Shown: positions 16,130 through 45,420, counted from the first letter of the stretch. The stretch: DNA of 64,000 nucleotides from Gammaproteobacteria bacterium (GCA_020849475.1 JADLGE010000023.1:8153-72152), one strand, 5' to 3'. Notes: generated by a model not told the origin, from the sequence alone. Numbers and translations are program-made.

Positions 16130-16975
16130 ATGAACCAAGCCAGCACGCCCGCTAATGAGCAGGCCGCCTACTGGAACGAGGAAGGCGGCGCACGCTGGGT
16201 GCGCCACATCGACGGCGTCGAAACCATGCTTGAGCCCTTGAACGCGCGCCTGCTGGAATGCGTGGCGGCCGCGGCCGGCGAACGGGTGCTGGATGTCGGC
16301 TGCGGCGGTGGCATCACCAGCGCGGCGCTCGCGCGCGCGGTCGGCGAGCGCGGCCACGTGACGGGACTCGATGTCTCGAAAGTCATCCTCGATGTCGCGC
16401 GCGCACGCTACGCCAGCCTCCCCAACCTCGAATTCCTGCTCGCTGATGCCGGCATGCACGCCTTCGCGCCGGCCAGTTACGACCTCCTGACCTCGCGTTT
16501 CGGCGTGATGTTCTTTCCCGCCCCGCACGCCGCCTTTGCCAACCTGCGGCGCGCCATGAAGCTTGGCGCAAGGCTGTGCTTCCTGTGCTGGCGCCGCTTG
16601 GACGAGAACCCGTGGATGGGTCTGGCCGCCGCGGCTGCCTTCAGCGTGCTGCCACCGCCGCCCCGGCCCGAGCCCGGCGCGCCGGGGCCGTTCTCGTTTG
16701 CCAAGCGCGAGCGTGTCACCGACATCCTGACGGTCGCGGGTTTCGGCAACATCGAATTCGAAGCGGTCGACCGCGGCATCGACCTCGGCAGTCTCGACGA
16801 AGCGATGACATGGCTGACGAACATGGGCCCCGCCGCGCAACCGCTGCGTGAAGCGAATGAAGATCATCGTGCGCAGGCGCTGGACGCCATGCGCGAGGCC
16901 CTGGGCAATGCGGAGCGTAACGGCCGGGTGGTGTTGAACGGCGCGACCTGGGTGGTGAAGGCGCAGGCCTCGTAG
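16130..16975 (+). CDS. Class I SAM-dependent methyltransferase
   Basis: Start refined to MNQAS (ATG 16130, AGGAA upstream). SAM-binding motif VLDVGCGGGITSAALA. Confidence 0.8.
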   Translation: MNQASTPANEQAAYWNEEGGARWVRHIDGVETMLEPLNARLLECVAAAAGERVLDVGCGGGITSAALARAVGERGHVTGLDVSKVILDVARARYASLPNLEFLLADAGMHAFAPASYDLLTSRFGVMFFPAPHAAFANLRRAMKLGARLCFLCWRRLDENPWMGLAAAAAFSVLPPPPRPEPGAPGPFSFAKRERVTDILTVAGFGNIEFEAVDRGIDLGSLDEAMTWLTNMGPAAQPLREANEDHRAQALDAMREALGNAERNGRVVLNGATWVVKAQAS

Positions 16976-17050
16976 GTGCGATTTCAATCGCACATTCATG
17001 GCGCGGCACCGGCGTGTCGCCAATCGAATGTGCGAATGAATTCGCACCTG
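16974..17050. repeat. Family A palindromic intergenic element, paired form (U - 28 nt - U')
   Basis: U = AGGTGCGATTTCAATCGCACATTCA. U' = AATGTGCGAATGAATTCGCACCTG. The element begins with the TAG stop of the methyltransferase gene. Confidence 0.8.
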
Positions 17051-17082
17051 CCGCGCTGCCATCGCCTGGCGGCGATAGACCT

Positions 17083-18789
17083 CTAGCGCGCCAACGGCCC
17101 GCGCACCAACTGCCCGGGCAGGTTGCCGGTAGGCACATTGTTTTCGAGCAGCACTTCACCGTTGACGATGGAGGTGCTGATGCCGGTGGCGGTCTGCTTG
17201 AGGCGCTGTGCGCCGGCCGGCAAGTCGTTCACCAGTTCCGGCATGTTCTGCGCGATGGTGTCGGGGTCGAAGATCACGAGATCGGCATTCAAACCTTCAC
17301 GCACCAGGCCGCGGTCGTACAGGCCCCAGGCGGTCGCGGTGTCGTGGGTGATGAGGCGCACGGCTTCTTCCAAGGTGAAGGCCTGCTTGTCCCGCACCCA
17401 GTGGCTCAACAGATGCGTCTGCAAGGATGAATCCATGATCTGCGCGACATGCGCGCCGGAGTCGGAGAACGTCACCACGCTGCGCGGGTGCTTCATCATG
17501 GTCAGCACATGATCCTGGTCCTCGTTGGCAAGCGGCTGACGGAAGAAGGCATTGCCATTGGTTTCAAGCGCGATGTCGATCATGGCCTCGGCGCCGCTCA
17601 CGCCGCGCTCACGCGCAACGTCGCTCATCAAGAGCTCATCGCCAATGCCGCGCATGTAATAGAACCAGTCCCATTCCGGCGGACGCGCTTCGGCGCCGAC
17701 GATTTCGGGACCGTTGTACGGCGCGTTGGCGACTTCGACCAGCTTGCGCTTGACCGCCGGGTCGCGCAGCAGCGCCAGCTGTTCATCGATGGGCTTGGCG
17801 CGGATGTCGCGCCACACGTCCCAATTGTCGAATGGCGTATGGGATTTGAACGACAGCAGCGTCGAGATGGAGCGGCTGTGGGCCTGCACGAACATGCGCC
17901 CGCCGGCCGCGCATACATCGTTGGCGAGCTGGTAGTAATCCGGCCACACGTCGGGCGCGATGCGGATGCTGGGCATGCCGAAAGTGATGGGCACACCGGA
18001 TTCCACTGCGAGCGTGGTCAGGCGTTCGAAGTAATCCTTCTTGCGCCGCTCACTGCGGCCCGGCGCTTCGCCGGCCAGTTCGAAAATGCCGGCGCCGGTC
18101 TCGCCCATGGCATTGACGATGGCGCGCACTTCCGACCAGTCGGCGATGCGGCTCGCCACGGGGCGGTCGTCGGCGGTCTGATGGTTGTAGGTGCGCGAAG
18201 TCGAGAAGCCGATCGCCCCGGCGCGCACTGCGTCCTGCACTTCGAACTGCATGCGTTTCAATTCATCGGGCGTGGCTTGCTCGCTGAACGCACGCTCGCC
18301 CATCACGTAAGTGCGCAGCGCCGAGTGGCCGATGTAACCGCCGTAGTTGATGCCCTTGGGCAAGCCATCGAGCACGTCGAGATATTCGCGGAAGGTTTCC
18401 CAGCGCCAGTTGATGCCGGCGCGCATCGCGTCGCGCGACAGATCCTCGGCGCGTTCGAGATTGCGGAACACCATGTCGGCGTCTTTCGCCGCGCAGGGCG
18501 CGAGCGTGAAGCCGCAGTTGCCCATGATGACGGTGGTGACGCCGTGGTAGCAGGAGCAGGAGCCGAGCGGGTCCCAGAAGATCTGGGCGTCCATGTGGGT
18601 GTGGCCATCGACGAAGCCCGGCGACACGATTTGGCCGCCGGCATCGATGCTGCGCTGCGCGCGCTCGTTGATGCGACCAATCTTGACTATCTTGCCGCCC
18701 TTCACGCCGACGTCCGCCGCAAAGCGCGGGCCACCGGAACCGTCCACCACGAAGCCGTTCTTGATCACGAGGTCGTACATCGTCGCCAC
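17083..18789 (-). CDS. N-acyl-D-amino-acid deacylase (D-aminoacylase) family amidohydrolase
   Basis: 568 aa. N-terminus MYDLVIKNGFVVDGSGGP...IVSPGFVDGHTHMD...GVTTVIMGNCGF is the hallmark of D-aminoacylases. Confidence 0.85.
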   Translation of the reverse strand: MATMYDLVIKNGFVVDGSGGPRFAADVGVKGGKIVKIGRINERAQRSIDAGGQIVSPGFVDGHTHMDAQIFWDPLGSCSCYHGVTTVIMGNCGFTLAPCAAKDADMVFRNLERAEDLSRDAMRAGINWRWETFREYLDVLDGLPKGINYGGYIGHSALRTYVMGERAFSEQATPDELKRMQFEVQDAVRAGAIGFSTSRTYNHQTADDRPVASRIADWSEVRAIVNAMGETGAGIFELAGEAPGRSERRKKDYFERLTTLAVESGVPITFGMPSIRIAPDVWPDYYQLANDVCAAGGRMFVQAHSRSISTLLSFKSHTPFDNWDVWRDIRAKPIDEQLALLRDPAVKRKLVEVANAPYNGPEIVGAEARPPEWDWFYYMRGIGDELLMSDVARERGVSGAEAMIDIALETNGNAFFRQPLANEDQDHVLTMMKHPRSVVTFSDSGAHVAQIMDSSLQTHLLSHWVRDKQAFTLEEAVRLITHDTATAWGLYDRGLVREGLNADLVIFDPDTIAQNMPELVNDLPAGAQRLKQTATGISTSIVNGEVLLENNVPTGNLPGQLVRGPLAR

Positions 18790-18941
18790 TCACTGTGAGA
18801 GAAACTCAAGCGAGATTAGCACACCAAAACCGGCGAACCCGCCAACCCATTAGTAGGTATCTCAACCCCGTCGCGCGGGTCAGCGCCAAACCGGTGACGC
18901 TGCGCCTACAATTGCCCCACCACCCGCAGGAGATCCCGCGC

Positions 18942-20114
18942 ATGCCGGCTTACAGCATCATCGACGTCGATACTCATGTCACCGAGTCGGCGGATCTGTG
19001 GACCAGCCGCGTGCCGGCGCGCATGCGCGACGCGGTGCCACAGCTCGTCAAGGACAAACGCGGACGACATATGTGGTTTTTGAACGGCAAGCCGATTGCG
19101 AAACTCGGCTTGTCGGCGACCGCCGGCGTCGGCGACATGAAAGACCCGCCCGATCACTATGACGACATGCATCCCGGCGCCTTCGATGCCAAGGCACGCC
19201 TCGCCTACATGGACAAGATGGGCATCTGGGCGATGGTCATGTATCCCAATGTCGGCGGCTTCGGCAGCCAGGTGTTCCTGCAGCTTGGCGATCCGGAACT
19301 GATGCTGACCTGCGTGAAGGTCTACAACGACTGGCAGACCGAGTGGGCGTCGGCCGACAGTCGCCGCCTGTTGCCCATCATCTCCACGCCGTTCTGGGAC
19401 GTGAATGCCGCCGTCGCCGAGGTGCGCCGCTGTGCGGCCATGGGCCATCGCGGCATCCTCTTCACTGGTGAACCGCAGTCTTTCGGGCAGCCGGTGATTG
19501 GCGACCCGTACTGGAATCCACTTTGGGAAGTGGCGGTGGAACTCGATTTACCGATCAGCTTCCACATCGGTTCCGGCAACATGGAGTCGGGCCTGCAGAA
19601 ACAGAAGATGCAAGTCTATGGGCGCATGGCGGCGTTCACGGAAGTGTCGGTCGCCTACTTCATGCGTAACGGCGTGCAGATGGCCGATCTGATTCTGTCA
19701 GGCGTGCTGGCGCGCTATCCCACGATCAAGTTCGTATCGGTGGAAAGCGGCATCGGCTGGATTCCCTTCCTGCTCGAAGCGCTCGACTACCAGTTTCTCG
19801 GCAACCGGGTAAGTGAAGAGCGCCCCGATCTCGATCTGCTGCCTTCGCAGTATTTCGCGCGCAACATCTACGGCTGCTACTGGTTTGAGCAGACCGCGCC
19901 GCGCCGCCTGCTCGATAAGGTCGGCATCGACAACATCCTGTTCGAAACCGATTTTCCACATCCGACCTCGCTTTTCGGCAAGGACGTACACGCGCGCATC
20001 GCCACCGGTCTTGCTGAATGCAGCGAAGAAGCGCGACGCAAGATTCTGTGGAGCAACGGCCAGCGTCTGTACAAGGTGGAGGAACCGGGCGCGGCGGATC
20101 TCGCGCGCGCCTGA
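18942..20114 (+). CDS. Amidohydrolase-2 family metal-dependent hydrolase/decarboxylase (ACMSD-like)
   Basis: Start refined to MPAYSIIDVDTHV (metal-binding HxH near the N-terminus). Later signatures include ILFETDFPHP. Divergent from the D-aminoacylase gene. Confidence 0.8.
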   Translation: MPAYSIIDVDTHVTESADLWTSRVPARMRDAVPQLVKDKRGRHMWFLNGKPIAKLGLSATAGVGDMKDPPDHYDDMHPGAFDAKARLAYMDKMGIWAMVMYPNVGGFGSQVFLQLGDPELMLTCVKVYNDWQTEWASADSRRLLPIISTPFWDVNAAVAEVRRCAAMGHRGILFTGEPQSFGQPVIGDPYWNPLWEVAVELDLPISFHIGSGNMESGLQKQKMQVYGRMAAFTEVSVAYFMRNGVQMADLILSGVLARYPTIKFVSVESGIGWIPFLLEALDYQFLGNRVSEERPDLDLLPSQYFARNIYGCYWFEQTAPRRLLDKVGIDNILFETDFPHPTSLFGKDVHARIATGLAECSEEARRKILWSNGQRLYKVEEPGAADLARA

Positions 20115-20127
20115 TGGGCTAAAGGCG

Positions 20128-20445
20128 ATGTCAGAAACCCCGGTCACGAGCGCCTGCGTCGAATTTCGCGAGACTCTCGCACGACACATCAAGGAACTGA
20201 CGCGCGCCGACCCGGAGCGTCACGGCACGGCCTGGTATTTCCTGCGGTATCTGCAGCGCGTCGCCAAGCGCGCGCACGCGAGCCCCAAGGCCAGTGAGGC
20301 GAGTGGCGCGATGCGCGGGCTGACAAGGTTTTATGTCGATTCAGCGGCGAACGATGCCGACTTGAGCGCGCGTTTCGACGACGTGCTGGCGGCGCATCGT
20401 CATGCGCTGCGCGTTGAGCACAGCACCCCTGCTGATGGCTATTGA
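20128..20445 (+). CDS. Hypothetical small protein
   Basis: Inner in-frame Met (MSETPVTSACVEFRE...) of the 210-aa track ORF. The 5' part of that ORF overlaps the preceding amidohydrolase-2 gene in another frame. No recognisable domain. Confidence 0.3.
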   Translation: MSETPVTSACVEFRETLARHIKELTRADPERHGTAWYFLRYLQRVAKRAHASPKASEASGAMRGLTRFYVDSAANDADLSARFDDVLAAHRHALRVEHSTPADGY

Positions 20446-20450
20446 CGTGT

Positions 20451-20528
20451 AGGTGCGACAAATTCCCACATTCATCTCCAATCGGGCGACCGCGCGCCGC
20501 CACTCAATGTGCGAATTTGTCGCACCTG
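20451..20528. repeat. Family A element, paired form with co-varying arms
   Basis: U = AGGTGCGACAAATTCCCACATTCA. U' = AATGTGCGAATTTGTCGCACCTG. The ACAAATT / AATTTGT variant is present in both arms. Confidence 0.8.
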
Positions 20529-20548
20529 CAAGCTACGCCCCCGTCAGA

Positions 20549-22894
20549 TCACACCGCGATGCGCTGCATCTCCCCCGTCGCCCGGTGCAAATCCTCGAAC
20601 AGCTCCGCGAGTGGCACCGGCTTGCCGATGCCATAGCCCTGCAGGTAATCGATGCCCAAGCGCGTCAGCACTTCGGCCTGCTGTGGCCCTTCGACGAATT
20701 CGGCGACGGTGGTCTTGTCCATGATGCGCGCGACCTCGGCAATCGAGCGCACCATCGCTTCGTCGAGTCGGTCGAGGGCGATGTTGCGCACGAAGATGCC
20801 ATCTATCTTGACCACGTCCACCGGCAAAGCTTTCAAGTAGGCAAACGACGACAGGCCGCTGCCGAAATCATCCAGCGCGAAACGGAAGCCGAGCTGCTTG
20901 AGACCGTTGATGAAGGACTGCGCGGTGTTGATGCTGGCGATGGCAGCGGTCTCGGTGATCTCGAAACAGAACTTCGCGGGCGGCAGATGATGCTTGCAAA
21001 ACTGCTGTTCGATGAAGCTCTGCAACTCCTGGTCTGCGAGTGACTGGCCGGAAATGTTGATGGAGCACGATTCAATCAAGGCCAGGCAATCGCGATGGGC
21101 GGCGAACCATTCGCAGGCGTGACGAATCACCCAGCGGTCGATACGCGGCGCGAGGCCGAAGCGCTCGGCCGCCGGCAGGAACAGGCCGGGCGAGATCATC
21201 GCGCCACGGTCGTCACGCATGCGCACCAGGATCTCGAGATGCGTCGACGGCGCCTCGGGGCGGCTGCGGGTGGCGCGTATCGGCTGCGCGTGCAGTTCGA
21301 AGCGGTCGTTTTCAAGCGCGCGGTTGATGACCGCCACCGAATCGACCTGCTGGCGATGGCGATTCAACTCGGCGTCGTCGGGGTCGAACTGGTAGACGCG
21401 CCCGCGGCCCATTTCCTTGGCCGCGTAGCACGCGGCATCGGCCGCCTTCATCACGCTCGCGGCGCTGGAATCAGGCGACAGCAGCGCCACCAGGCCGATG
21501 CTCACGCCGGCGTTGAAGAACTTGTCTTCCCAGGCGAAGCGATGCGCTTCGATGGCCTTGCACAGCTTGTCGGCGATGGCGCTGGCCTGGGCGCGCGTGC
21601 AGTGCTCGAGCAGGATCGCAAACTCATCACCGCCGAGTCGCGCCACCGCGTCGTGTTTGCGCACATGTTCGCGCAACAGCGCCGCGACCTCGCGCAGCAT
21701 GGCATCGCCCGCTTCATGGCCGCAGGCGTCATTGATGACCTTGAAGCTGTCGAGATCGAGATACAGCACCGCGTGCTGGGTGCTGTCGATGCGTATCGAC
21801 TCCAGCGCGCGCTTCAAGCGGGTTTCAAATTCGTGGCGATTCAGAAGCTCGGTCAGTTCATCGTGGGTTGCCTGGTAGGCCAAGCGGTCGGCCATGATGC
21901 GCGTGGTGGTGACGTCCTGAATCTGTACGATGGCGCGCACCCCGCCCTCGGTCGAACGCGGAATCGGCGAACCCGACACCATCACCCACAGCGGCGCGCC
22001 GTGGCTCGATGACTGGCGAGTCTCCAGGCAGAACTCGGTGATGCGTCCATCCAGCAAGGCGCTGAAGCGCTCCATCAGGCGCGCGCTGTCGACCGCGTCG
22101 GCGAGCGCCCAGAACGGCCGGTTTTTCCAATAGTCGGCGCCGGTCGCGTAGATGCCTTCGGTGACGCGGTTGGCGTGCACCACCGCGCCGTCGGCGTCGA
22201 TGAGCAGCATGCCGATGGGGGCGTTGTGGAACGCACTGGCGAAACGCGCCTCGGTCTGCTGCAGCGCCGAGGCCAGCTCCGCGGAACGATTGAAATGCCG
22301 GCTGTAATGGCGACCGGCGGACAACAGTGCCACACCGAACAACACCGCCATCAGTGCCAGCGTGCGAAACGCCGCGTTGTCATGCAGGGCGCACCACAAG
22401 GTCACGGGGATCAGCATCAAAGGTACGTACAGCCGGTAGCTGTTCAGCACCGGCGACAGATGCACGATGCCGCCGGCGCACAGGCCGGCCAGCACCAGGA
22501 TGGCGAGAAACTGATGTTCGAACGGCACGCCCGTCATCAACAGCAGTACGCCGATGCCCCAGGTCAGCCCGGTCAAGGCCACCAGCGCGCTGAACTGCTG
22601 CTCGGCCTGCGTCACCGGCAGGCGACTGGGGCCGGCCAGATAGCGCGCGCGCTGCTGCATGCGCAGCAGGCACAAGGCGCCGAGCCCGAGATACCAGCCG
22701 CCGAGCACGCCGTGATTGCCATAGGGCCACCACAGGCACAGCAGCAAGGTCGCGAGCGCGAGGTTACAGATGAATCCGAGCTGCGCCTGTTGGTGCACAT
22801 AGCCCAGGCGCAATTCACGCAAAGAGGTCTGCGCGGCGTCGCTGGGCACGTATTCAAGGGCCTGCGATGGATGGGTGGCGGCGGCCGAAAGCAT
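20549..22894 (-). CDS. Membrane-anchored sensory diguanylate cyclase/phosphodiesterase (multi-TM N-terminus, PAS, GGDEF, EAL)
   Basis: About 8 hydrophobic helices at the N-terminus, a PAS region, GGDEF motif RLGGDEFAIL, and EAL-domain motifs (CFEITETAAI, ALDDFGSGLSSFAYLK). Start is uncertain: Met-53 of the track ORF is used here. Confidence 0.8.
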   Translation of the reverse strand: MLSAAATHPSQALEYVPSDAAQTSLRELRLGYVHQQAQLGFICNLALATLLLCLWWPYGNHGVLGGWYLGLGALCLLRMQQRARYLAGPSRLPVTQAEQQFSALVALTGLTWGIGVLLLMTGVPFEHQFLAILVLAGLCAGGIVHLSPVLNSYRLYVPLMLIPVTLWCALHDNAAFRTLALMAVLFGVALLSAGRHYSRHFNRSAELASALQQTEARFASAFHNAPIGMLLIDADGAVVHANRVTEGIYATGADYWKNRPFWALADAVDSARLMERFSALLDGRITEFCLETRQSSSHGAPLWVMVSGSPIPRSTEGGVRAIVQIQDVTTTRIMADRLAYQATHDELTELLNRHEFETRLKRALESIRIDSTQHAVLYLDLDSFKVINDACGHEAGDAMLREVAALLREHVRKHDAVARLGGDEFAILLEHCTRAQASAIADKLCKAIEAHRFAWEDKFFNAGVSIGLVALLSPDSSAASVMKAADAACYAAKEMGRGRVYQFDPDDAELNRHRQQVDSVAVINRALENDRFELHAQPIRATRSRPEAPSTHLEILVRMRDDRGAMISPGLFLPAAERFGLAPRIDRWVIRHACEWFAAHRDCLALIESCSINISGQSLADQELQSFIEQQFCKHHLPPAKFCFEITETAAIASINTAQSFINGLKQLGFRFALDDFGSGLSSFAYLKALPVDVVKIDGIFVRNIALDRLDEAMVRSIAEVARIMDKTTVAEFVEGPQQAEVLTRLGIDYLQGYGIGKPVPLAELFEDLHRATGEMQRIAV

Positions 22895-24828: not shown

Positions 24829-24871
24829 CATCCGGTGTCACAACAGGAATGTCAGACTGAAGTCTGACTTT
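24822..24871. repeat. Family B hairpin element (opposite orientation, nested)
   Basis: GTCTGACA ... AATGTCAGAC-TGAA-GTCTGACTTT directly after the cupin stop. Confidence 0.7.
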
Positions 24872-29696: not shown

Positions 29697-29724
29697 TTAA
29701 TGTGCGAATTCATTCGCACACTGG
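29697..29724. repeat. Family A element, solo hairpin unit
   Basis: TTAATGTGCGAATTCATTCGCACACTGG between convergent gene ends. Confidence 0.75.
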
Positions 29725-31163: not shown

Positions 31164-31195
31164 GTTGAATGTGCGATTTCAATCGCACATTCAAC
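31164..31195. repeat. Family A element, solo hairpin unit (TTCA-loop variant)
   Basis: GTTGAATGTGCGATTTCAATCGCACATTCAAC. 14-bp arms around TTCA. Same internal variant as the U arm at 16974. Confidence 0.75.
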
Positions 31196-34388: not shown

Positions 34389-34813
34389 ACATCCGCATGA
34401 ATGCCCCGACCTACGACAAACCGCAGCCCGACATCAGCGCCGTGTCGCGCCCGTTCTGGGATGGCCTGCGCGAGCACCGTCTGCTGCTGCAGGCCTGCGC
34501 GCGCTGCCACACCGTGCGCCATTACCCGCGGCCGGTGTGCGACCGCTGCTACTCGATGGACTGTGAGTGGATAGCGGGCAGCGGGCGCGGCACGGTGCAT
34601 AGCTGGACGGTGAATCATCATCCGTTTCACTTCGCTTTCAAGCGCGAGAGTCCGTTCATCACGCTGACGGTCGATCTCGAGGAAGGCGTGCGCATGCAGG
34701 CGCCGCTGCGCGATGCGGATGCCAGTCAGCTCAAGATCGGCATGGCCGTCAAGTTGATGTATGAAGACATGACGCCGGAGTTGACGCTGCCGGCCTTTCG
34801 GCGGGCGCTGTAG
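34385..34813 (+). CDS. DUF35 OB-fold / Zn-ribbon protein (thiolase-associated)
   Basis: GTG start overlapping the upstream stop (GTGA). Zn-ribbon CxxC...CxxC (CARCHTVRHYPRPVCDRC) followed by an OB-fold region. The classic partner of SCP-x-type thiolases. Confidence 0.8.
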   Translation: MNIRMNAPTYDKPQPDISAVSRPFWDGLREHRLLLQACARCHTVRHYPRPVCDRCYSMDCEWIAGSGRGTVHSWTVNHHPFHFAFKRESPFITLTVDLEEGVRMQAPLRDADASQLKIGMAVKLMYEDMTPELTLPAFRRAL

Positions 34814-34958
34814 GTGCGAATTCATTCGCACATCCAACGGACAGGAGCGGTGGTTCGTTTTCAATGTCCGACTGAAGTCGGACCCACAAAGGGATCCTCT
34901 CCTTTGTGGGTCAGGCTTCAACCCGACATTCAATTGTGCGAATGAATTGGCGCCTACA
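34812..34958. repeat. Family A composite element enclosing a family B-like long hairpin
   Basis: U (AGGTGCGAATTCATTCGCACAT) ... inner imperfect 30-bp-arm palindrome with TGAA/TTCA loops ... degenerate U' (CAATTGTGCGAATGAATTGGCGCCTACA). Starts with the TAG stop of the DUF35 gene and ends 9 nt before the MaoC-N ATG. Confidence 0.8.
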
Positions 34959-35422: not shown

Positions 35423-35424
35423 CC

Positions 35425-36800: not shown

Positions 36801-37991
36801 ATGGGCAACGTTTCCGTGGTCGATGAATTGCTGGGCCTCGACGCGCAGCCGGCAGCGCGCGGCGTCGCCGATTTCGCCGCCACCATCGCCGCCAGCAATG
36901 GCATGCTGATTCCGCTCGAGTTGCTGGTGCAGGCACGCCTGCCGGCCGGCGCCACCCATGAACAGGCCGCGCTGTTGAAGCGCGAGTACCGTCACAAGAG
37001 CCGCCTGCTCGACAGCGATCGGCCGCTACTCGCCTGCGTGTGCGACATCCTCGCCGACAGCACGCCCGAGCCCATCGCCCTTGCCGCCTGTGTGGCGGCA
37101 CTCGCGCCACCGGAGGTGCCGCGTGTGCTCGCCATGTCGCTCGATCTGGCGCGAGCCCTGACGGCACCGATAGAGGCTGACGAAATCATCATCCGCGCGG
37201 CGCTGAACAGCGACCCGCGGCACGCCGCCGCCGGTTTGCAGACCCTGCGCAGCGCGCTCGCGGCCCGATCTGATACACGACTGCTGGTGGTCCTGCATGA
37301 TGTCCGTAATGGCGTGGCCTCGCCCACCGCGCCCCACGACCTCATGCGAGCACTGGCGGATCTGGCGGACATGGTATGTGCGTTGCCGCTGCTGACACGC
37401 GCCCGTGGCACCGCGGCGGCCGCCCAGCGTGCGCTCTACATGGACACCGCGACCCGCCTGGACGCTCTGGGTCTCAAGCGCCTGGCGCCCGGCTTGTATG
37501 GGCAGCGACACGCGCGGGTGCCGGCGCGCCCTTCGGCGTGGCTCACGCGCATCATGAATCGCCTGCCGCAGGCCGACGTGCTGGGGCTGGGGCCGGCCGC
37601 GCACAGTCGCTTCAATGAAATGCATTTCGACAACCACACCGATGCCGGCCTGCACGCGCGCGACGTGAAGCGCGGCGGCTACGGCATCGCCCGCACCTAC
37701 GCCAGTTCGCCGCTTGAACAGTTCGTCGAAGCCTTGCTGCACAAGCTCGCGGGCGGCGGCGTGGTCGACGTCACGGCGCTGGCGGTGCGCTGTCAGTGCG
37801 CCTCGCCGATGTTCATGAAAGCATGCGACTCGACCATCGATGCGTTGCGCAACAGCGGTGCGCTAAGCGGCAAGGATGCGCGTCGGGTGAGCTTGCAGGC
37901 GAGCAACGACGCCCACTTCGGCGAGACGCATGCACGTCTCGGTCAATTACGCGATGCGCTACCGACCATCGCGCCCCTGGGCAAGTGGTGA
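36801..37991 (+). CDS. Hypothetical protein with HemN C-terminal-like region (no radical-SAM cysteine motif)
   Basis: 396 aa. C-terminal third resembles the HemN/HemW family (VLGLGPAAHSRFNEMHFDNHTDAGLHARDVKRGGYGIARTYASSPLEQFVEALLHKLA). The N-terminal half lacks CxxxCxxC. The stop codon is embedded in a 10-bp-stem hairpin. Confidence 0.45.
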   Translation: MGNVSVVDELLGLDAQPAARGVADFAATIAASNGMLIPLELLVQARLPAGATHEQAALLKREYRHKSRLLDSDRPLLACVCDILADSTPEPIALAACVAALAPPEVPRVLAMSLDLARALTAPIEADEIIIRAALNSDPRHAAAGLQTLRSALAARSDTRLLVVLHDVRNGVASPTAPHDLMRALADLADMVCALPLLTRARGTAAAAQRALYMDTATRLDALGLKRLAPGLYGQRHARVPARPSAWLTRIMNRLPQADVLGLGPAAHSRFNEMHFDNHTDAGLHARDVKRGGYGIARTYASSPLEQFVEALLHKLAGGGVVDVTALAVRCQCASPMFMKACDSTIDALRNSGALSGKDARRVSLQASNDAHFGETHARLGQLRDALPTIAPLGKW

Positions 37992-38016
37992 GGTGAGGCA
38001 TCACGCCTCACCTCAA
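37988..38016. terminator. Hairpin between convergent genes (possible bidirectional terminator)
   Basis: GAGGTGAGGC-ATCAC-GCCTCACCTC, a 10-bp perfect stem embedding the stop codon of the upstream + gene. No U-tract. Confidence 0.45.
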
Positions 38017-38030
38017 CTCAGGCAGCGGAA

Positions 38031-38447
38031 TTATTTCTGGATTGATCGCAGATAGATGATCATTTCCAGAATGCGGCCGCGCACCGCGGTTTCGGCGCCC
38101 TGCGCATTGGCGCCCTTCCAGTTGGAACCCCACACCGGCATGTCCTTGGTGCCATGCGCCCCACTCGGGCCGCGCCCGTCTATCGAGTCGTAGACGACGT
38201 TGAATGGAAACGTGCCGCCATTGTTCTTGGCGAGCAGGGTCAGATTGGCTGGCTTCTTGTTCAACAGCGCGGCGTACGGGCCGTCGCCAACGGCTTGCGG
38301 ACCGTGACAGACCGCGCAGCTCTCCATGAAGCGCGCCTTGCCGGCGGCTTCCACTGAATCCTCGGCGGCAAAGGCGGTGCTGCTGATCACCAGCCCAAGC
38401 ATCGGCAACAGGCCTCGAACGACAGCGCTGCGAAGATGTGCGTGCAT
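38031..38447 (-). CDS. Class I c-type cytochrome (periplasmic)
   Basis: 138 aa. Signal peptide, single CxxCH (CAVCHG), Met-containing distal region (KDMPVWG). Confidence 0.8.
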   Translation of the reverse strand: MHAHLRSAVVRGLLPMLGLVISSTAFAAEDSVEAAGKARFMESCAVCHGPQAVGDGPYAALLNKKPANLTLLAKNNGGTFPFNVVYDSIDGRGPSGAHGTKDMPVWGSNWKGANAQGAETAVRGRILEMIIYLRSIQK

Positions 38448-38555: not shown

Positions 38556-39320
38556 TCAGGCGCTGGCGCTGCGCTCGGCTATCTTGTGCAAGGCCGAGCG
38601 CATGAGGATCTCGACCGATTTACCTTTCACCGCAATCGCCCCGGCATCCTGCAGACGGCCCAGCGCGCGGCTGATGGTCTCGGCGGCGAGACCGAGATAA
38701 TTGGCGATGTCGTAGCGCGACATCGACAGGAACAGGGATTGCTCGGCGCGACCGATGGCGCGGAAGCGGTCCGATAATTCCAGGAGGAAATCCGCCACGC
38801 GCTCATCAGCGCTGGCGTGATGCAGCCGCACGCGCGCATGGCGCTCGGCTTCAAAGCTCTGCATGAGTTTTGAAAAGAAACTGTGCAGCAAGCTGGCATC
38901 GGAGCGCAGCAGCGCTTCGAGATCGGTGGCCGACACTTCACACACCGTGCTGCGTTCGAGCAGCACCACGGACTCCGTGTACTGGCGATGCTCGAGCGAG
39001 GCCGCGCCGATCATATCGGTCGGGAAATGAAAACCCATCACGTCCTCGTGACCGTTTTCATTGATCTGGAACGACTTCGCCGAGCCCGAACGCACCAGGT
39101 AAAAAGCCCGGCGTGGTTCACCCTGACGATACAGAAACGCGCCGCGCGGCTGCGGCGTACCCGGCACGATCAAACCCATCAAGGAACGCGCGGCATCACT
39201 ATCGTGCATGTGATCCGGCAGACAGGCGGCACGCAGGCGACAGATATCGCAGGTCGCGGAGCGGCGTGCGCCGCCCGGCGGCAGACTGGTGCGTTGGTGA
39301 AGAGGCATTTCTGTGGCCAC
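38556..39320 (-). CDS. fnr: Fnr/Anr-type Crp-family transcriptional regulator (oxygen sensor)
   Basis: N-terminal Cys cluster CDICRLRAAC plus later Cys residues, a cNMP-binding-like beta-roll, and a C-terminal HTH (RYDIANYLGLAAETISRALGRL). Confidence 0.85.
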   Translation of the reverse strand: MATEMPLHQRTSLPPGGARRSATCDICRLRAACLPDHMHDSDAARSLMGLIVPGTPQPRGAFLYRQGEPRRAFYLVRSGSAKSFQINENGHEDVMGFHFPTDMIGAASLEHRQYTESVVLLERSTVCEVSATDLEALLRSDASLLHSFFSKLMQSFEAERHARVRLHHASADERVADFLLELSDRFRAIGRAEQSLFLSMSRYDIANYLGLAAETISRALGRLQDAGAIAVKGKSVEILMRSALHKIAERSASA

Positions 39321-39629
39321 CGGTATTCCTTGCTGTCGAGGGTGCGACGTGTCAGCGCGGGGCAGGCAGGCCGTGCGCTTGGGCAGGTGACCTGACGAAC
39401 AGCCCGGGGCGCCCGGCTATCGATTGAAGCGGAATCACCCGGGATGTGGGGCGAGCAGCGGCGTACACCCAATGCGGGGCGTGCCGGCTGCCCGGAATAG
39501 TGCCAAGAATGTGCGACCGCTTGCAATGCTCATCGCCGCTCATGCGCTTGCCTGGAAGCAGTACTGTGCTGCCTCCTCGCCCTCCTTCACGTCACTCACT
39601 CAGCGTTGAGTCAGTGTCGAACAGCGCGC

Positions 39630-39650
39630 CGTCCGTCATCGTGACGGACG
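39630..39650 (-). terminator. Candidate terminator hairpin downstream of deaD
   Basis: CGTCCGTCA-TCG-TGACGGACG, 9-bp stem, about 25 nt past the deaD stop. Weak U-tract. Confidence 0.35.
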
Positions 39651-39670
39651 TCAAGCACGACGCGATTGCG

Positions 39671-41953
39671 TCAGGGACGTCGACCCGGCCCCTTGGGTGC
39701 GCCCTTGTTCTTGCGATCACGATGACGGTCTTTCTTGTGATCCTTGTCGCGCACACGGTCCGTGCGGCGCGGCGTGGTCGGATCGCCAAGGCGACTGATC
39801 TGCAACTGCTGACCGCCAACCCAGATGCGCTTCAGATGCGACAGCATGTCGTTCGGCATGCCGAGCGGCAGATCGACCGTCGAGTAATCGTCATGAATCT
39901 GGATGCGGCCGATGTCGCGTGAATCGATACCGGCTTCATTGGCGATGGCGCCGACGATATTGCCCGGCATCACACCGTGGCGATGACCGACTTCCAGACG
40001 GAAGCCTTCCATGCCGGCCGGCGGCGGCGTGCGCACGGCGAGGCGCGCGCGACGATCGTCGCCTTCGCCGCGGGGTGGCCGTGTGTCGTTTTCGCGGAAC
40101 GGCGGGCGACGCTCGCCGTCACGTGGCGGGCGCTCGGCGCCAAAGCGCGGCGGACGATCGCCGTCGTTGCGCGGCGCATTGTCGTCACGCGGGAAGCGCG
40201 GCGGACGCTCACCGTCCTGGCGGTCATTCGGAAAACGCGGCGGACGGTCATCATCGCGACGCGGCGGACGCTCGTCGGCGAAGCGTGGCGGACGTGCGTC
40301 ATCGCGACGCGGGCCGCGGTCATCGGGAAAGCGCGGCGGTCTGTCGCCAAACGCCGGACGCTCACCCTCACGGCGCGGCGGTCTGTCACCAAACGGCGGA
40401 CGCTCGCCAAAGCGCGGACGCTCCTCGAAACGGCGCGGACCATCGTTCTCGGTGCGCACCGGGCGTGAGTCTTCGCCACGCGGCGGACGGCGCTCGTAAC
40501 CGCGCTCACCGCGCGGCTCATCTCGCTTCTCCCAGCGCGGCCCATCGCGGCGCGGCCGCTCATCGCGGGAATCACGGCCGTGGCGATCACCCCGCGCCGG
40601 CGGTTCCAGCAACAAGGGCTGGTCGCCCTGCACCATGCTCGCCAACGCGGCGGCGATGCGCGCCGGTTCGACATCGTGTTCGCGCTGATAGCGCTCGACG
40701 AGTTCGGCGAAGATTTCGAGATCGGCGGTCGCGAGGGTGTCGGTGATGGTCTGCATGAAGCGCCCGATGCGCTTGTCGTTGACCATCTCGGTGCTCGGCA
40801 AATCCATGCGTTCGATGGGCTGGCGCGTGGCGCGTTCGATGACACGCAGCATGTGCTGTTCACGCGGCGCGACGAACAGGATGGCATCGCCATGGCGACC
40901 AGCGCGGCCAGTACGGCCGATGCGATGCACGTAGACTTCGGAGTCGTTGGGGATATCGAAATTGATGACGTGGCTGATGCGTTCGACGTCGAGTCCGCGC
41001 GCCGCGACATCGGTCGCGACCAGGATGTCGAGCTTGCCTTCCTTCAACTGGTCGATGGTTTTTTCACGCATCTTCTGCGGCACGTCGCCGCTGATGGCGG
41101 CGCAGGAATAGCCGCGCGCATCGAGACGCTCGGCCAGTTCCATGGTCGCAATCTTGGTGCGCACGAAAATCAGCACGCCCTCGTAGTTCTCGGTCTCGAG
41201 GATGCGCGTCAAGGCATCGAGCTTGTGCAGGCCGCTCACCACCCAGTAGCGCTGACGGATGGTCGCCGCGGTGGTGGTGCTCAAGCGAATGCTGATCTGT
41301 TCCGGCTCGCGCAGGTAGCGCTCGGCAATCTTGCGGATCGGCGGCGGCATGGTCGCCGAGAACAAGGCCACCTGGCGTTCCGGCGGGGTCTGTTCCAGCA
41401 CCCACTCGACATCGTCGATGAACCCCATGCGCAGCATCTCGTCGGCCTCGTCCAGCACCAGGCAGGACAGCGCGGTCAGATCCAGCGTGCCGCGGCGCAT
41501 GTGGTCCATCACACGGCCCGGCGTGCCAACCACCACATGCACGCCACGGCGCAGGCCGCGCAGCTGCACGCCATAGTCCTGACCGCCATAGATGGGCAGC
41601 ACGTGGAAGCCCGGCATGCGCGAGGCGTAGGAATGAAACGCCTCGGCCACCTGGATGGCCAGCTCACGGGTCGGCGCAAGCACCAGCACCTGGGGCAGCG
41701 GCTTGTCGAGATCGATGCGCGTCAGCAGCGGCAGTGCGAACGCCGCGGTCTTGCCGGTGCCGGTCTGGGCCTGGCCAATCAGGTCGCGCCCCGCCATGAA
41801 ATGCGGAATGGTGGCGGCCTGGATGGCAGTGGGCGTTTCGTAGCCGACGTCGGACAGGGCGGCGAGCACGGGCTCGGACAGGCCCAGATCGGCAAAGGTA
41901 ACAGGGGTGGATTCGGTGGTTTCGGTAGTTTCGTCAGAAGAATTCGAGGACAC
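39671..41953 (-). CDS. deaD: DEAD-box ATP-dependent RNA helicase DeaD/CsdA with extended Arg/Asp/Pro-rich repeat linker and DbpA RNA-binding domain
   Basis: Motifs AQTGTGKT, DEAD, SAT, HRIGRTGRAG. C-terminal DbpA-type domain (GAIANEAGIDSRDIGRIQIHDDYSTVDLP). About 190-aa low-complexity region of RPPRF-like repeats in between. Confidence 0.9.
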   Translation of the reverse strand: MSSNSSDETTETTESTPVTFADLGLSEPVLAALSDVGYETPTAIQAATIPHFMAGRDLIGQAQTGTGKTAAFALPLLTRIDLDKPLPQVLVLAPTRELAIQVAEAFHSYASRMPGFHVLPIYGGQDYGVQLRGLRRGVHVVVGTPGRVMDHMRRGTLDLTALSCLVLDEADEMLRMGFIDDVEWVLEQTPPERQVALFSATMPPPIRKIAERYLREPEQISIRLSTTTAATIRQRYWVVSGLHKLDALTRILETENYEGVLIFVRTKIATMELAERLDARGYSCAAISGDVPQKMREKTIDQLKEGKLDILVATDVAARGLDVERISHVINFDIPNDSEVYVHRIGRTGRAGRHGDAILFVAPREQHMLRVIERATRQPIERMDLPSTEMVNDKRIGRFMQTITDTLATADLEIFAELVERYQREHDVEPARIAAALASMVQGDQPLLLEPPARGDRHGRDSRDERPRRDGPRWEKRDEPRGERGYERRPPRGEDSRPVRTENDGPRRFEERPRFGERPPFGDRPPRREGERPAFGDRPPRFPDDRGPRRDDARPPRFADERPPRRDDDRPPRFPNDRQDGERPPRFPRDDNAPRNDGDRPPRFGAERPPRDGERRPPFRENDTRPPRGEGDDRRARLAVRTPPPAGMEGFRLEVGHRHGVMPGNIVGAIANEAGIDSRDIGRIQIHDDYSTVDLPLGMPNDMLSHLKRIWVGGQQLQISRLGDPTTPRRTDRVRDKDHKKDRHRDRKNKGAPKGPGRRP
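40003..40588 (-). repeat. In-frame low-complexity coding repeat within deaD (RPPRF / DER-type units)
   Basis: Protein region of iterated ERPPRFxDDR-like units, for example ...GDRPPRFPDDRGPRRDDARPPRFADERPPRRDDDRPPRFPNDRQDGERPPRFPRDD.... It generates shadow ORFs in the other frames. Confidence 0.7.
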
Positions 41954-42211
41954 AGGGGGGTACCTTAAGAAGCTGCGTGCGACGGCGGTGTGGCCGAGGG
42001 AGGCCGCGAATTATAGGCGCTTCGCCGCAATAGTCACGAAAAGCGCATGATCGCACGACCTCCCAGCCGCGCCGCACGCGGCCAGCGGACGGGCTGCGCA
42101 GTCCGACCTTGTTTAACATTTCCGCGCTGGTCGCGACCCGGCGACCGGCCTAGCATGGCATCCACCGTGGGCGCGGCAACCGGCCGCTGCCTCTGCACAA
42201 GTAGCGGCCCG

Positions 42212-42550
42212 ATGGCACTCAGCGACACCCACCTCGTATTGATGTTCACCCCCTGGGCGCTGCTCGTGACCTTGGGTCATGTCGCCAAACAGGAGTTTCG
42301 CGCCCACCTGCGGCGCCGCCACCCCGAGGCCTACCGCCGCATCTACGGCGTGCATGCCGACCGCCGCCGCCACAGCGCTCTCGACCCCGTGGCCTGGCTG
42401 CTGCAACTACGCTTCGAAATGTCGAGCGCCTGGCGCGCCTTCGGCGACCATCAACTGGAACGCCTCGGCCAGCGTCTGCGCCAGCGCATGCTGGCCGCGG
42501 TGGTGCTTTACTTCGGCGCCGTGGGCTGGGTGCTGGCGGCGGGGCTGTAA
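42212..42550 (+). CDS. Hypothetical small membrane protein (doubtful)
   Basis: ORF in the gap between gloB and deaD, both on the opposite strand. Two hydrophobic segments. Could instead be a non-coding deaD leader region. Confidence 0.2.
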   Translation: MALSDTHLVLMFTPWALLVTLGHVAKQEFRAHLRRRHPEAYRRIYGVHADRRRHSALDPVAWLLQLRFEMSSAWRAFGDHQLERLGQRLRQRMLAAVVLYFGAVGWVLAAGL

Positions 42551-42600
42551 CGCTTCAACCGAATTCGCACCTGCAGCGCCCACCGCAATGGGCAAGCGCA

Positions 42601-43392
42601 TCACCAGGAATTACGCAGCTCCCGCAACTTCAGGAACACGGTCTTCGCGTCGACCTCGGCCGGCAGGTCCGGAAACGATTCGCGCAGCGCCGCGATCACC
42701 GATGGGCTGCGCAGACGGAAGAACGTGTTGACCTCTTTTTCCAGCGCCAAAGTCGAGACCAGCGGCGCATTCGGATCCTGTCCACTGACGGACTTCAGCA
42801 GCTCACCGGCACGCGCATTGTCCGGTTCGCGGTTCAAGGTGAAGCCGAGGTTGTTGGCGATGTAATCATGCCCGGGATAGATGAGGGTGTGGTCGGGCAG
42901 CGTCGCCAGTTGCCTGACGAAGGTGTCGTAGAGCTGCGCCGGGTGACCGCCGTGGTGGCAGTTGCCGGCGCCGGCGTTGAACAAGGTGTCGCCACAGAAG
43001 AGTGCCGGCGTGTCGGTGTGCGACAGCAGGCAGACATGGGCCAGGGTATGACCGGGAGTGTCGAGCGCTTCGAGTTCGACGCGCTTGCCAATCTTGATCA
43101 CATCACCCGCCTTGAGGCCGCGATCGAGTCCCGGAATGCTGTCCCGCGCGTTGGCATGGGCCAGTACTTTCGCACCGGTGGCGGCCACCACCGCGCCATT
43201 GCCGCCGATGTGATCATGATGCTCGTGGGTGTTCAGCACCTGGGTGATGCGCCAGCCGCGCGCCTTGGCGACCGCCAGGCACTTTTCATGATCGAGCGGA
43301 TCGATGGCCAAGGCCTCACCGGTTTCCCCACAGGCGATGAGGTAGTTGAAATTGCGGTAGGCATTACCGGTCCAGATCTGTTCAACGATCAC
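42601..43392 (-). CDS. gloB: Hydroxyacylglutathione hydrolase (glyoxalase II), MBL fold
   Basis: 263 aa. THEHHDHIGGN metal motif. GloB-like throughout. Confidence 0.85.
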   Translation of the reverse strand: MIVEQIWTGNAYRNFNYLIACGETGEALAIDPLDHEKCLAVAKARGWRITQVLNTHEHHDHIGGNGAVVAATGAKVLAHANARDSIPGLDRGLKAGDVIKIGKRVELEALDTPGHTLAHVCLLSHTDTPALFCGDTLFNAGAGNCHHGGHPAQLYDTFVRQLATLPDHTLIYPGHDYIANNLGFTLNREPDNARAGELLKSVSGQDPNAPLVSTLALEKEVNTFFRLRSPSVIAALRESFPDLPAEVDAKTVFLKLRELRNSW

Positions 43393-43580
43393 TTGCGTTC
43401 TCCTTCATTGCGCGCGCCTGCAAAGAAATTCACGAGGCGCCAGACCACAGGTTAGCACGCCCTCCGCTGGCGTCCGCGCTAGCATGTGGACGAGCAGTTC
43501 CTTACGCGAAAGCGTACTTGACGAATCGCGACCAGACCCGACAATGAAGTCATTCCCATCACCGCGGCCCGTCTCGAATC

Positions 43581-44531
43581 ATGAGCGCAGGAGAACGTTT
43601 ACCCGGTACGCCGGACCCCATGCACCGCTGGCCCGGCGTCGGCGGCGTGATGCTGGCAGGAGACAGTTGGGGGCCGAGCGATGGCCCCTTGATCCTGCTG
43701 CAACATGGCGGTGGCCAGACCCGTCATGCGTGGAAGGCTGCCGGCGAAGCGCTGGGCGCGGCCGGCTACCATGCCATTGCCTTCGACGCGCGCGGTCACG
43801 GTGATTCCGACTGGGCGCCGGACGGCGTCTATGGCCAGGACATCATGGTCGAAGACCTGTGTGCGCTCATCAAGGAACTGGGCGGCCAACGTCCGGTGCT
43901 GGTCGGTGCGTCGATGGGCGGCGGCACCAGCCTGGTGGCGATAGGCGAAGATCGCGTCGATGCCACCGCCCTGGTGCTGGTCGACATCGCACCGCAGATC
44001 GAGCCCGAAGGCGTGCAGAAGATCCAGGCCTTCATGAACACCAAACCCGAGGGCTTCGATTCACTCGAAGAAGTGGCGGCCGCCATCGGCGCCTACCAGC
44101 CACACCGCAAGCCACCGAAAGATCTGGCCGGCCTCGCCAAGAACCTGCGTCTGGCGCCCAACGGCAAGTATCGCTGGCATTGGGATCCACGCTTCATGCA
44201 GCTGCGCCGCGAAATGGACAAACGCTTCGAGCGTCTCTCGGCCTGCGCGCGCGCGCTGAAGCTGCCCACCCTGCTGGTGCGTGGCGGCCTGTCGGACGTG
44301 CTGTCGGAAGAAGGCGCGGCCAACTTCCTCACCCTGTGCACCCACAGCGAATACGTCAACATCACCGACGCCGGACACATGGTGGCCGGCGATCGCAATG
44401 ACATCTTCGGCAACGCGGTCATTGAATTCCTGACCCGCACCGTGCCGCTCGACGGGCAGCCGGTGCAAGCGGCGCACACGCCGCAACCTCATCATGAAGG
44501 GCCGCCGGGCGACGTCATCGACGTGCCCTGA
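43581..44531 (+). CDS. Alpha/beta-hydrolase fold protein
   Basis: 316 aa. Nucleophile-elbow GASMGGG. HGGGQTRHAW oxyanion region. Confidence 0.8.
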   Translation: MSAGERLPGTPDPMHRWPGVGGVMLAGDSWGPSDGPLILLQHGGGQTRHAWKAAGEALGAAGYHAIAFDARGHGDSDWAPDGVYGQDIMVEDLCALIKELGGQRPVLVGASMGGGTSLVAIGEDRVDATALVLVDIAPQIEPEGVQKIQAFMNTKPEGFDSLEEVAAAIGAYQPHRKPPKDLAGLAKNLRLAPNGKYRWHWDPRFMQLRREMDKRFERLSACARALKLPTLLVRGGLSDVLSEEGAANFLTLCTHSEYVNITDAGHMVAGDRNDIFGNAVIEFLTRTVPLDGQPVQAAHTPQPHHEGPPGDVIDVP

Positions 44532-44596
44532 ATCAACATCCAGCGCCGCCATCCACGCGGCGCGGCGCGCGAGTACAGAATGCGGGGAGCTATTGC

Positions 44597-45313
44597 ATGT
44601 CACTCAACAACACCACGGTGGTGGTCTTAGGCGGCAGTTCCGGCATCGGTCTCGCGACCGCCCAGGCCGCGCAGGCGGAAGGGGCGAGAGTCATCATCAC
44701 CGGCCGCGATGCTGGACGGCTGGAAACGGCGCGCGTCGCCCTGGGCGGTCATGCCGATGCCAAGGTGCTGGACGCCGCCGATGAAACCGGCACACGCGAA
44801 CTGTTCGCCGGCCTGCCGGCGCTCGATCATGTGTTCATCACCGCCGGCACCCTGGTGCTCGATGCGAAACTCGCGCCCGACACGTCGACGCTCGCGCCGG
44901 CCATGGACATGCGCGTCTGGGGCGCACTGTACGCGGCGAAATACGCGGCGCCCAAGATTCGCCCCGGCGGTTCGATCACGTTCATGTCCGGCACCGCCTC
45001 AAGAAGACCGCTGCCAGGCGCGTCGGTCGCCACCGCGTCCTGCGGTGCGGTCGATGCCTTCGCGCGCGGTCTCGCACTCGATCTCGCACCGATACGCGTC
45101 AACACCATCCAGCCCGGCTATGTCGACACACCCTTGTTCGACGGCATCTTCGGCGCCCAGCGCGACGAGATCCTGGCCGCCGCCGGCGCCAAGCTGCCGG
45201 TAGGTCGCATCGGTCGCCCCGACGAAATCGCACAGGCGGTGCTGTTCCTCATGAAAAACGGCTATGTCACCGGCATCAACCTGGTGGTGGATGGTGGCGG
45301 TTTGCTGGTGTGA
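44597..45313 (+). CDS. Short-chain dehydrogenase/reductase (SDR)
   Basis: 238 aa. VVVLGGSSGIGLATA Rossmann motif. YAAAKYA catalytic Y/K. Confidence 0.85.
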   Translation: MSLNNTTVVVLGGSSGIGLATAQAAQAEGARVIITGRDAGRLETARVALGGHADAKVLDAADETGTRELFAGLPALDHVFITAGTLVLDAKLAPDTSTLAPAMDMRVWGALYAAKYAAPKIRPGGSITFMSGTASRRPLPGASVATASCGAVDAFARGLALDLAPIRVNTIQPGYVDTPLFDGIFGAQRDEILAAAGAKLPVGRIGRPDEIAQAVLFLMKNGYVTGINLVVDGGGLLV

Positions 45314-45337
45314 CGCCGGCTGGCGTCATCCCTGTTG

Positions 45338-45420
45338 AAGGTGCGAATTCATTCGCACATTAATGGCGGACCACGGACGCCAAACGTAATTTTTCGATGT
45401 GCGAATGAATTCGCATCTAC
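45338..45420. repeat. Family A element, paired form
   Basis: U = AAGGTGCGAATTCATTCGCACATTA. U' = GATGTGCGAATGAATTCGCATCTAC. Overlaps the region upstream of gldA. Confidence 0.8.

Follow-up and report, generated by a model that had tools for sequence, protein, structure and literature searches.

The DNA studied here is a stretch of 64,000 nucleotides (one strand, 5' to 3') from a Gammaproteobacteria bacterium (GCA_020849475.1 JADLGE010000023.1:8153-72152), referred to below as the window and numbered from its first letter. Its GC content is 64.6%. Between its genes lies a family of short palindromic units, family A, which an initial annotation had described as genome-specific and GAATTC-centred. 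The genes of the window were mapped roughly, from the GC content of codon positions plus Pfam matches, and on this map every family A copy is intergenic. Ten full units occupy six intergenic sites, as four doublets (A1 to A4) and two singlets (A5 and A6); the four paired elements and two solo units of the initial annotation are thus present where it had placed them. Its description of the copies as intergenic and at unrelated loci also holds, the flanking genes (a methyltransferase, two amidohydrolases, GGDEF/EAL, HD, two LLM oxidoreductases, ChsH2-like, MaoC and SDR) being unrelated.

Eight sites were classified by the orientation of the adjacent genes: four gaps are convergent, four are co-directional and none is divergent. 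All copies are downstream of at least one gene, with units 0-40 bp from stop codons. In two cases the unit itself supplies the stop codon, i.e. the TAG of the GTAG motif preceding the hairpin (hereafter the head) ends the upstream methyltransferase gene at A1 and the ChsH2-like gene at A4. The latter doublet stands within an apparent operon (thiolase-like, ChsH2-like, MaoC).

The family A unit reads 5'-GTAG-GT-GCGAA-TTCA-TTCGC-AC-3'; in it a 4-base head precedes a hairpin whose stem is 7 bp long and whose loop is TTCA, and GAATTC is not its centre. The hairpin part measures 18 nt, and 22 nt with the GTAG head. Allowing at most two mismatches, GTGCGAATNNATTCGCAC has 8 matches in the 64-kb window against 0.08 expected from dinucleotide-preserving shuffles (n=100), none of which reaches 8 (0/100). 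A covariance model trained on unit variants from other genomes detects in the window the 10 family A units and four units of a sister family, family B, at E<0.4. Three of the window units are exact copies of the 22-nt consensus. Concerning half-unit remnants, GNAGGTGCGA is found 8 times where 1.0 match is expected. Three fragments had been reported initially: that of 42561-42574 is a solid remnant and that of 50263 a plausible one, while the 9-mer at 7477-7493 is indistinguishable from chance (0.7 chance matches expected).

In the four doublets the heads always face outward (GTAG-hairpin ... hairpin-CTAC; 4/4). The heads of these eight units are GTAG in five cases, GCAG in two and GAAG in one, the final AG being kept in 8/8; both singlets are devoid of a head. 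About 36-40 nt separate the two hairpins, and the unusual length of the 34810-34957 element (A4) is due to a family B doublet nested in its spacer. The initial annotation described the spacers as differing between copies: they do, but they are not wholly unrelated, as three of them share a small TGGCG...CGCC(A/C) hairpin. When folded as single-stranded DNA (ssDNA) each doublet forms one long hairpin, of -25.8 to -46 kcal/mol (z -5.3 to -9.0), a stability reached by none of the shuffles; as RNA the doublets fold with z of -6.5 to -10. The solo hairpins give, as ssDNA, z of -4.7 and -9.6. Units 16976 and 31171 carry a paired change, A7T/T12A, which preserves the short hairpin; in A1 it creates a mismatch within the long doublet hairpin. 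The arm of A2, variant in the window, is unmutated in a close strain (L120). The coordinates and composition of all these elements are collected in Table 1.

Table 1. Elements of families A and B in the window (the last row lies outside it); L224 is the sequence past the left end of the window.
Feature	Position	Strand	Composition	Setting
A1, family A doublet (REPIN)	16972..17051	.	head GTAG 16972-16975; hairpin GTGCGATTTCAATCGCAC 16976-16993; inverted hairpin 17030-17047; head complement CTGC 17048-17051; small TGGCG..CGCCA hairpin in spacer	between convergent genes
A2, family A doublet	20449..20529	.	heads GTAG 20449-20452 and CTGC 20526-20529; 17-nt variant GTGCGA-CAAAT-TC(G/C)CAC in both arms	105-aa open reading frame on one side, convergent GGDEF/EAL gene on the other
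A3, family A doublet	45337..45420	.	head GAAG 45337-45340; hairpin 45341-45358; inverted hairpin 45399-45416; CTAC 45417-45420; TGGCG..CGCCA hairpin in spacer	between co-directional genes
A4, family A doublet	34810..34957	.	head GTAG 34810-34813; hairpin 34814-34831; inverted hairpin 34936-34953; CTAC 34954-34957; family B doublet nested in spacer	
A5, family A singlet	29702..29719	+	GTGCGAATTCATTCGCAC; TAAT where the head would be	convergent HD and LLM oxidoreductase genes
A6, family A singlet	31165..31194	+	TTGAAT-GTGCGATTTCAATCGCAC-ATTCAA; hairpin core 31171-88; headless, with tail sequence at either end, giving a palindrome with a 14-bp stem; compensated A7T/T12A variant	between two co-directional LLM genes
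Family A remnant, probable	42561..42574	-	GAATTCGCACCTGC, i.e. 3' arm and head complement; 14-nt exact match to A1	50-bp gap, convergent genes
Decayed family A remnant, possible	50263..50276	+	GCAG-GTGCGAT... (head and 5' arm)	32-bp gap, convergent genes
Family B unit	9825..9850	+	GTGG-GTCAGACTTCAGTCTGAC-CCAC	between convergent genes
Family B unit	24851..24868	-	GTCAGACTTCAGTCTGAC (as read on the - strand)	co-directional gap
Family B doublet	34866..34927	.	heads inward: GTCCGACTGAAGTCGGAC-CCAC, central hairpin, GTGG-GTCAGGCTTCAACCCGAC	nested in A4
Family B doublet	L224 15465-15545		heads inward	4 kb past the left end of the window

To follow the unit beyond the source genome, GTGCGAWTTCAWTCGCAC was searched in a collection holding one genome per prokaryotic species. 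Exact matches were present in at least 113 stretches from many beta- and gammaproteobacterial genera. The family is thus not genome-specific, the identical 18-mer with the same head occurring in these stretches. Among the matches listed the hosts are Gallionella, Sideroxydans, Sulfuricella, Halothiobacillus, Zoogloea, Casimicrobiaceae, Methylococcaceae and others, and the isolates include Thiopseudomonas denitrificans, Methylobacter luteus and Thiorhodococcus fuscus. The 5' flank and the head lay outside the search pattern. Nevertheless, in the 156 copies of the 113 stretches listed the successive bases T-G-T-A-G are found 106, 145, 136, 137 and 150 times, and about 88% of these copies have a GTAG head. 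The base before GTAG is T in 106/156 copies and the one before that is most often C (55) or T (53), a flank which, judged from its sequence, would be compatible with a CT cleavage site. Neighbouring units form 78 pairs in these other genomes, with heads outward in 55, inward in 9 and in direct orientation in 14, and their spacings fall in discrete classes of 14, 23-29, 40-43 and 61-64 nt.

Other searches on the unit and its surroundings gave no match. Open reading frames (ORFs) less than 600 bp from the motif, clustered over the 113 loci, revealed no recurrent neighbour gene. Rfam at gathering thresholds has no match over the whole window. None of 2.9 million viral contigs contains the exact 22-mer, so carriage by phages is unsupported. 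Four of the retrieved loci (L027, L040, L077 and L112) belong to CAMCBY01, labelled as a Klebsiella pneumoniae metagenome-assembled genome (MAG); they have about 62% GC, family A and B units and the ATTCA tail seen in the window. Klebsiella does not have such a composition, and contamination or mislabelling of the bin is therefore probable. A relative of the source organism may be present in it, and likewise in JAYWAC01 (L003, L005, L006, L021 and L062).

The constraints acting on the hairpin were examined on all G[TC][AG]G-N7-TT[CT]A-N7 sites present in the 851 kb of retrieved DNA. The 7-bp stem is perfect at 209/416 sites, and the perfect hairpins with a G..G head use 14 stem sequences. GTAG, GTGG or GCAG is the head of 207 out of the 232 perfect hairpins whose loop is TT(C/T)A. 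Relative to family A, the stem pairs show 86 changes compensated on both sides, 13 G-T pairs and 26 one-sided breaks, these counts being of copies and not of independent events. Across 16 stem variants the loop keeps T12, T13 and A15 without exception, and either C or T is found at position 14.

Six-frame translations of the retrieved loci and of the window were then searched with phmmer for REP-associated tyrosine transposases (RAYTs; REP, repetitive extragenic palindromic), using E. coli RayT as query. Two matches were obtained (E 1e-10 and 8e-9), both adjoining the motif; none lies in the window, in agreement with the initial annotation, which had seen no transposase there. At L037 an array of seven family A units surrounds a 150-aa RAYT ORF, whose stop codon falls within a GTAG head. 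At L111 (Zoogloea) a 149-aa RAYT ORF is located between copies with a GTGG head. The two proteins score 143-151 bits against NCBIfam NF047646 (REP-associated tyrosine transposase; cutoff 80) and also match Pfam Y1_Tnp and PDB 4er8 TnpArep. In a gammaproteobacterium (L134) another RAYT, P0043, stands between exact family A doublets; its TAG stop codon is, here too, inside a GTAG head. The RAYTs of L037 and L134 share about 66% identity and are adjoined by the identical 22-nt unit GTAGGTGCGAATTCATTCGCAC.

Close variants of the unit accompany the RAYT loci of L111, L125, L127, L128 and L223; the variants GGGCGAA-TTCA, GTGCGAA-TTTA and GTGCGGA-TTTA are found at the RAYTs of Sideroxydans, Methylomicrobium and two other loci. 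In a metagenome scan covering 80 RAYT loci, GTAG-G..CG(A/G)A-TT(C/T)A units flank about 18/27 of the RAYTs with at least 55% identity to P0043, while more distant RAYTs carry other REPs. In 11 sequences of the RAYT clade the HUH motif (H65-x-H67) and Y125 are invariant.

The gene surroundings of some of these RAYTs may be recorded here. At L134 (1265-6388) the RAYT and its REP doublets lie between a methyltransferase gene and a ResIII-type helicase/restriction gene, in an apparent Type III restriction-modification system. At L127 (3045-4766) an N6_N4 methyltransferase gene is directly downstream of the Methylomicrobium RAYT. At L125 and L128 the RAYTs (P0090, from a Sideroxydans MAG, and P0111; gene 2501-2953 in both) are located between CheB/CheR-PAS and PAS-GGDEF/HD genes, a shared position that fits vertical inheritance of the RAYT locus.

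The closest described counterpart of family A is REPMb of the REPtron Mb of Marinomonas sp. MWYL1, GTAG-GT-CGGCC-TTTA-GGCCG, associated with TnpAMb, a group 3 TnpA-REP (Corneloup et al. 2021, PMC8266576). TnpAMb, whose catalytic residue is Y125, cleaves single-stranded REP at CT or CA in a strand-specific manner (PMC8266576). Systematic evolution of ligands by exponential enrichment (SELEX) on REPMb showed that T12, T13 and A15 are essential and N14 free, and that stem swaps are tolerated while mismatches are not (PMC8266576). Both REPs have GTAG, GT, a perfect 5-bp stem, a 4-nt TTNA loop and the returning stem, and the natural variation of family A obeys the rules of this SELEX. The published catalytic residue of TnpAMb, Y125, bears the number of the invariant tyrosine of the 150-aa RAYT clade. 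The stems differ, being CGGCC in REPMb and GCGAA in family A, and so does the distribution: REPMb copies cluster near their own RAYT whereas the family A copies of the window are dispersed with no RAYT nearby.

The GTAG-tagged REPs and their RAYTs have been described more generally (Nunvar et al. 2010, PMC2817692; Di Nocera et al. 2013, PMC3733652). Their published hallmarks are a GT(A/G)G head, a palindrome, a short non-complementary centre and compensated stem mutations; the REPs are mostly downstream of genes, and RAYTs are located between two inverted REPs, which often begin directly at the stop codon (PMC2817692, PMC3733652). Family A presents all of these hallmarks, the flanking of RAYTs being seen in other genomes. 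The REP of Thioalkalivibrio sp. HL-EbGR7, GTAGGTCGGCCTTCAGGCCGAC, shares with family A the frame GTAG-GT-N5-TTCA-N5-AC. In contrast to published REPs, which are mostly treated as species- or genus-specific (PMC2817692, PMC3733652), family A is common to many genera. The searched full text of papers contains no relevant match to the exact 22-nt sequence of family A or to its sub-strings.

Two classical systems can be set beside these. The REPINs (inverted REP doublets that fold into a long hairpin) of Pseudomonas fluorescens SBW25 (Bertels and Rainey 2011, PMC3116915) are, like the doublets of family A, inverted REP pairs around a short, less-conserved spacer, they form a long hairpin and coexist with decayed-looking singlets; for them as for family A the proposed mobiliser is a RAYT acting in trans. 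They differ by their REP (GTGGGAGGGGGCTTGCCCCCGAT, with a CTTG-type centre), by their spacing (a 71-bp register in SBW25 GI versus about 36-40 nt between the hairpins of family A) and by their spacers, which are less divergent than those of family A. The REP/BIME (bacterial interspersed mosaic element) of E. coli and its RayT (YafM; PDB 4er8; PMC3479197) resemble family A by the GTAG head beside a hairpin, the recognition of ssDNA and the HUH/Y1 enzyme. Nevertheless E. coli REPs are about 35 nt long with an essential bulge in the stem (PMC3479197), and E. coli RayT, which belongs to group 2, has about 26% identity to the family A RAYT clade.

The head, the hairpin, the doublet layout and the presence of the same unit on the flanks of RAYTs elsewhere thus make family A a member of the REP sequences. 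It is a REP/REPIN family of the GTAG-GT-N5-TTNA type, a kind already known, which bears out the REP/BIME-like character proposed initially. We consider it very probable that its copies in the window are REPs arranged mostly as inverted doublets (REPINs of 80-150 bp), with a few decayed headless singlets and half-unit remnants, and that they were copied in trans by a RAYT. Headless singlets and remnants consisting of half units are what is expected of decayed REPIN copies, with only 2 singlets for 4 doublets. In the mechanism considered most likely, a RAYT (TnpA-REP), which is an HUH/Y1 tyrosine transposase, acts in trans to copy the REPINs, themselves non-autonomous. It would bind the folded hairpin on ssDNA, reading the GTAG head and the loop bases T12, T13 and A15, then cut at a nearby CT or CA and transfer the strand, leaving no target-site duplication. 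Copies would build up shortly after the ends of genes, at positions that tolerate them, and would there also provide transcripts with a stable hairpin at the 3' end. We infer that the source genome still encodes a matching RAYT, that the copies are still mobile and that they have an effect on RNA.

Perfect 18-nt palindromes recurring at several loci could also be the operators of a dimeric transcription factor governing a regulon, a possibility already envisaged by the initial annotation. The locations are at odds with it, since 0/8 sites are in divergent, i.e. promoter, gaps, all are downstream of at least one gene and the genes around them are functionally unrelated. Moreover, compensated stem changes keep the pairing rather than the sequence, the GTAG head is strand-specific and present on one side only, and an identical unit brackets RAYT genes. 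We therefore regard operators as extremely improbable. Scarcely more credit can be given to miniature inverted-repeat transposable elements (MITEs) mobilised through the recognition of their terminal inverted repeats by a DDE transposase. Small, intergenic elements in which terminal inverted repeats of about 22 nt enclose a short spacer do evoke MITEs, as the initial annotation had suggested, but 0/4 doublets have a target-site duplication or direct repeats at their borders, each arm is itself a GTAG-headed hairpin, which is the REP signature, and the gene associated with the unit elsewhere is an HUH/Y1 RAYT and not a DDE enzyme. A minor variant of the same low probability, plain intrinsic terminators, is contradicted by the lack of a T tract 3' of family A units; terminator-like sites are not enriched in the region (14 versus 14.3 expected) and no family A unit is among them. 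Integron attC sites were dropped on inspection only, there being no cassette array or integrase and the genes being of housekeeping type.

The comparison with close strains and relatives bears on the present activity of the elements. About 74 kb of the source genome were covered, i.e. the window plus 10 kb past its left end, and these 10 kb hold no family A unit. Close strains of 98.5-100% identity (GCA_964267835.1, GCA_035909955.1 and several metagenome contigs) retain every element in place. A relative, L222, in which the flanking LLM oxidoreductase is a 91% identical protein, lacks A5 and A6; in the gap equivalent to that of A6 (L222 335-395) it has instead a 17-bp perfect inverted repeat, GGAAATGGTGTCAGGTT...AACCTGACACCATTTCC. 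This absence, together with the family B doublet inside A4, is indirect evidence for a turnover of the elements. L222 is the sole informative relative: LLM oxidoreductase homologues at 80-83% were uninformative as empty sites, those for which DNA was available being not syntenic, and BLAST of all retrieved loci against the window returned no orthologous region from a relative. When L120 (GCA_964267835.1) is compared with window positions 19738-41075, gaps affect 62 positions in 21 kb and the calls of several genes come out as fused or split; these differences look like long-read indel errors and not biology.

Several observations weigh against copying by a resident RAYT. No RAYT was found in the window, in the 10 kb past its left end (L224) or in L120. 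Searches seeded with RAYT proteins matched other organisms only, e.g. P0268 (L223, 47% GC), and in the metagenome scan of the RAYT clade no locus was attributable to the source organism. Of the eight doublet heads, three depart from GTAG (GCAG or GAAG), and the singlets have none. The spacers of the doublets are strongly divergent, beyond what is expected from recent copying of whole REPINs. No excision or insertion event was directly observed, and the genome-wide abundance is extrapolated, as only the above 74 kb were seen. Thus the dependence on a distant RAYT, proposed by the initial annotation, finds support for its core in other genomes, while the source genome's own RAYT was not found.

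As no RAYT was seen for the source genome, the copies of the window could be fossil or domesticated REPs, the RAYT having been lost and the hairpins kept as useful or harmless; possible uses are the protection of mRNA 3' ends, the insulation of convergent transcription and the binding of nucleoid proteins. Their origin would be the one given above and the difference concerns only their present activity. Besides the missing RAYT, the mutated heads, the headless singlets and the divergent spacers, this fits the location of units 0-40 bp from stop codons (two of which they supply), their very stable RNA folds (z -6.5 to -10) and the persistence of every copy in the close strains. But the RAYT gene is usually single-copy, and 74 kb is a small sample for such a gene. 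Three units are exact 22-nt consensus sequences, which argues against a long neutral decay, and the final AG kept in 8/8 doublet heads is where in vitro selection on REPMb was strongest. The relative with 91% protein identity, finally, carries different elements. On balance fossil REPs seem unlikely, though to a far lesser degree than operators or MITEs, and REPINs copied in trans by a RAYT are preferred.

Family B follows the frame of family A. Its unit, GTGG-GTC(A/C)GAC-TTCA-GTC(T/G)GAC, differs by compensated changes of the stem bases, and its doublets have their heads inward, around a CCACAAAGG...CCTTTGTGG hairpin. A RAYT at L204, with 52% identity to the family A type, is flanked by GTGG-GTCCGGA-TTCA units that resemble family B. 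The coexistence of the two families, nested and of opposite doublet polarity, might tentatively point to a cell that has two RAYTs, each with its own specificity. The nested arrangement at 34810-34957 looks like the insertion of one element into another.

Three other hairpins were noticed in the window. One, at 45311-45328 (TGACGCCGGCTGGCGTCA, with a perfect 7-bp stem), is located immediately upstream of A3 and overlaps the SDR stop codon. Another, unrelated to either family, has a 10-bp stem (GAGGTGAGGC-ATCAC-GCCTCACCTC) and is located at 37990-38014, exactly where the convergent genes 36801-37991 and 38031-38447 meet; a role as bidirectional terminator is possible. The third, at 57547-57572, is GTAG-headed (GGTAG-GCGCGAT-TGCC-ATCGCGC) and located inside the gene 57356-59164 (- strand), with E=0.03 by the covariance model. 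REPs are known to occur inside genes; this one, intragenic and with such an E value, was treated as probably due to chance.

The identification of family A settles the annotation of the window: its palindromes are REP/REPIN; they are neither operators nor terminators, nor a novel class, and they explain the frequent contig breaks at such sites in the source gammaproteobacterium, which is uncultured. Natural variation in this REP superfamily reproduces the SELEX rules established in vitro for the REPtron Mb. More tentatively, with the balance leaning slightly the other way, a single REPtron lineage, made of the 150-aa RAYT clade and of the GTAG-GT-N5-TT(C/T)A-N5-AC REP, could be common to many beta- and gammaproteobacterial genera. 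If so, either the recognition code between protein and DNA is unusually strongly conserved or the lineage has repeatedly spread horizontally. REPIN-RAYT systems are viewed as vertically inherited and lineage-specific, a view with which horizontal spread would contrast. The exact unit and the one RAYT clade found across genera offer a convenient system to study how the specificity between REP and RAYT is kept or transferred.

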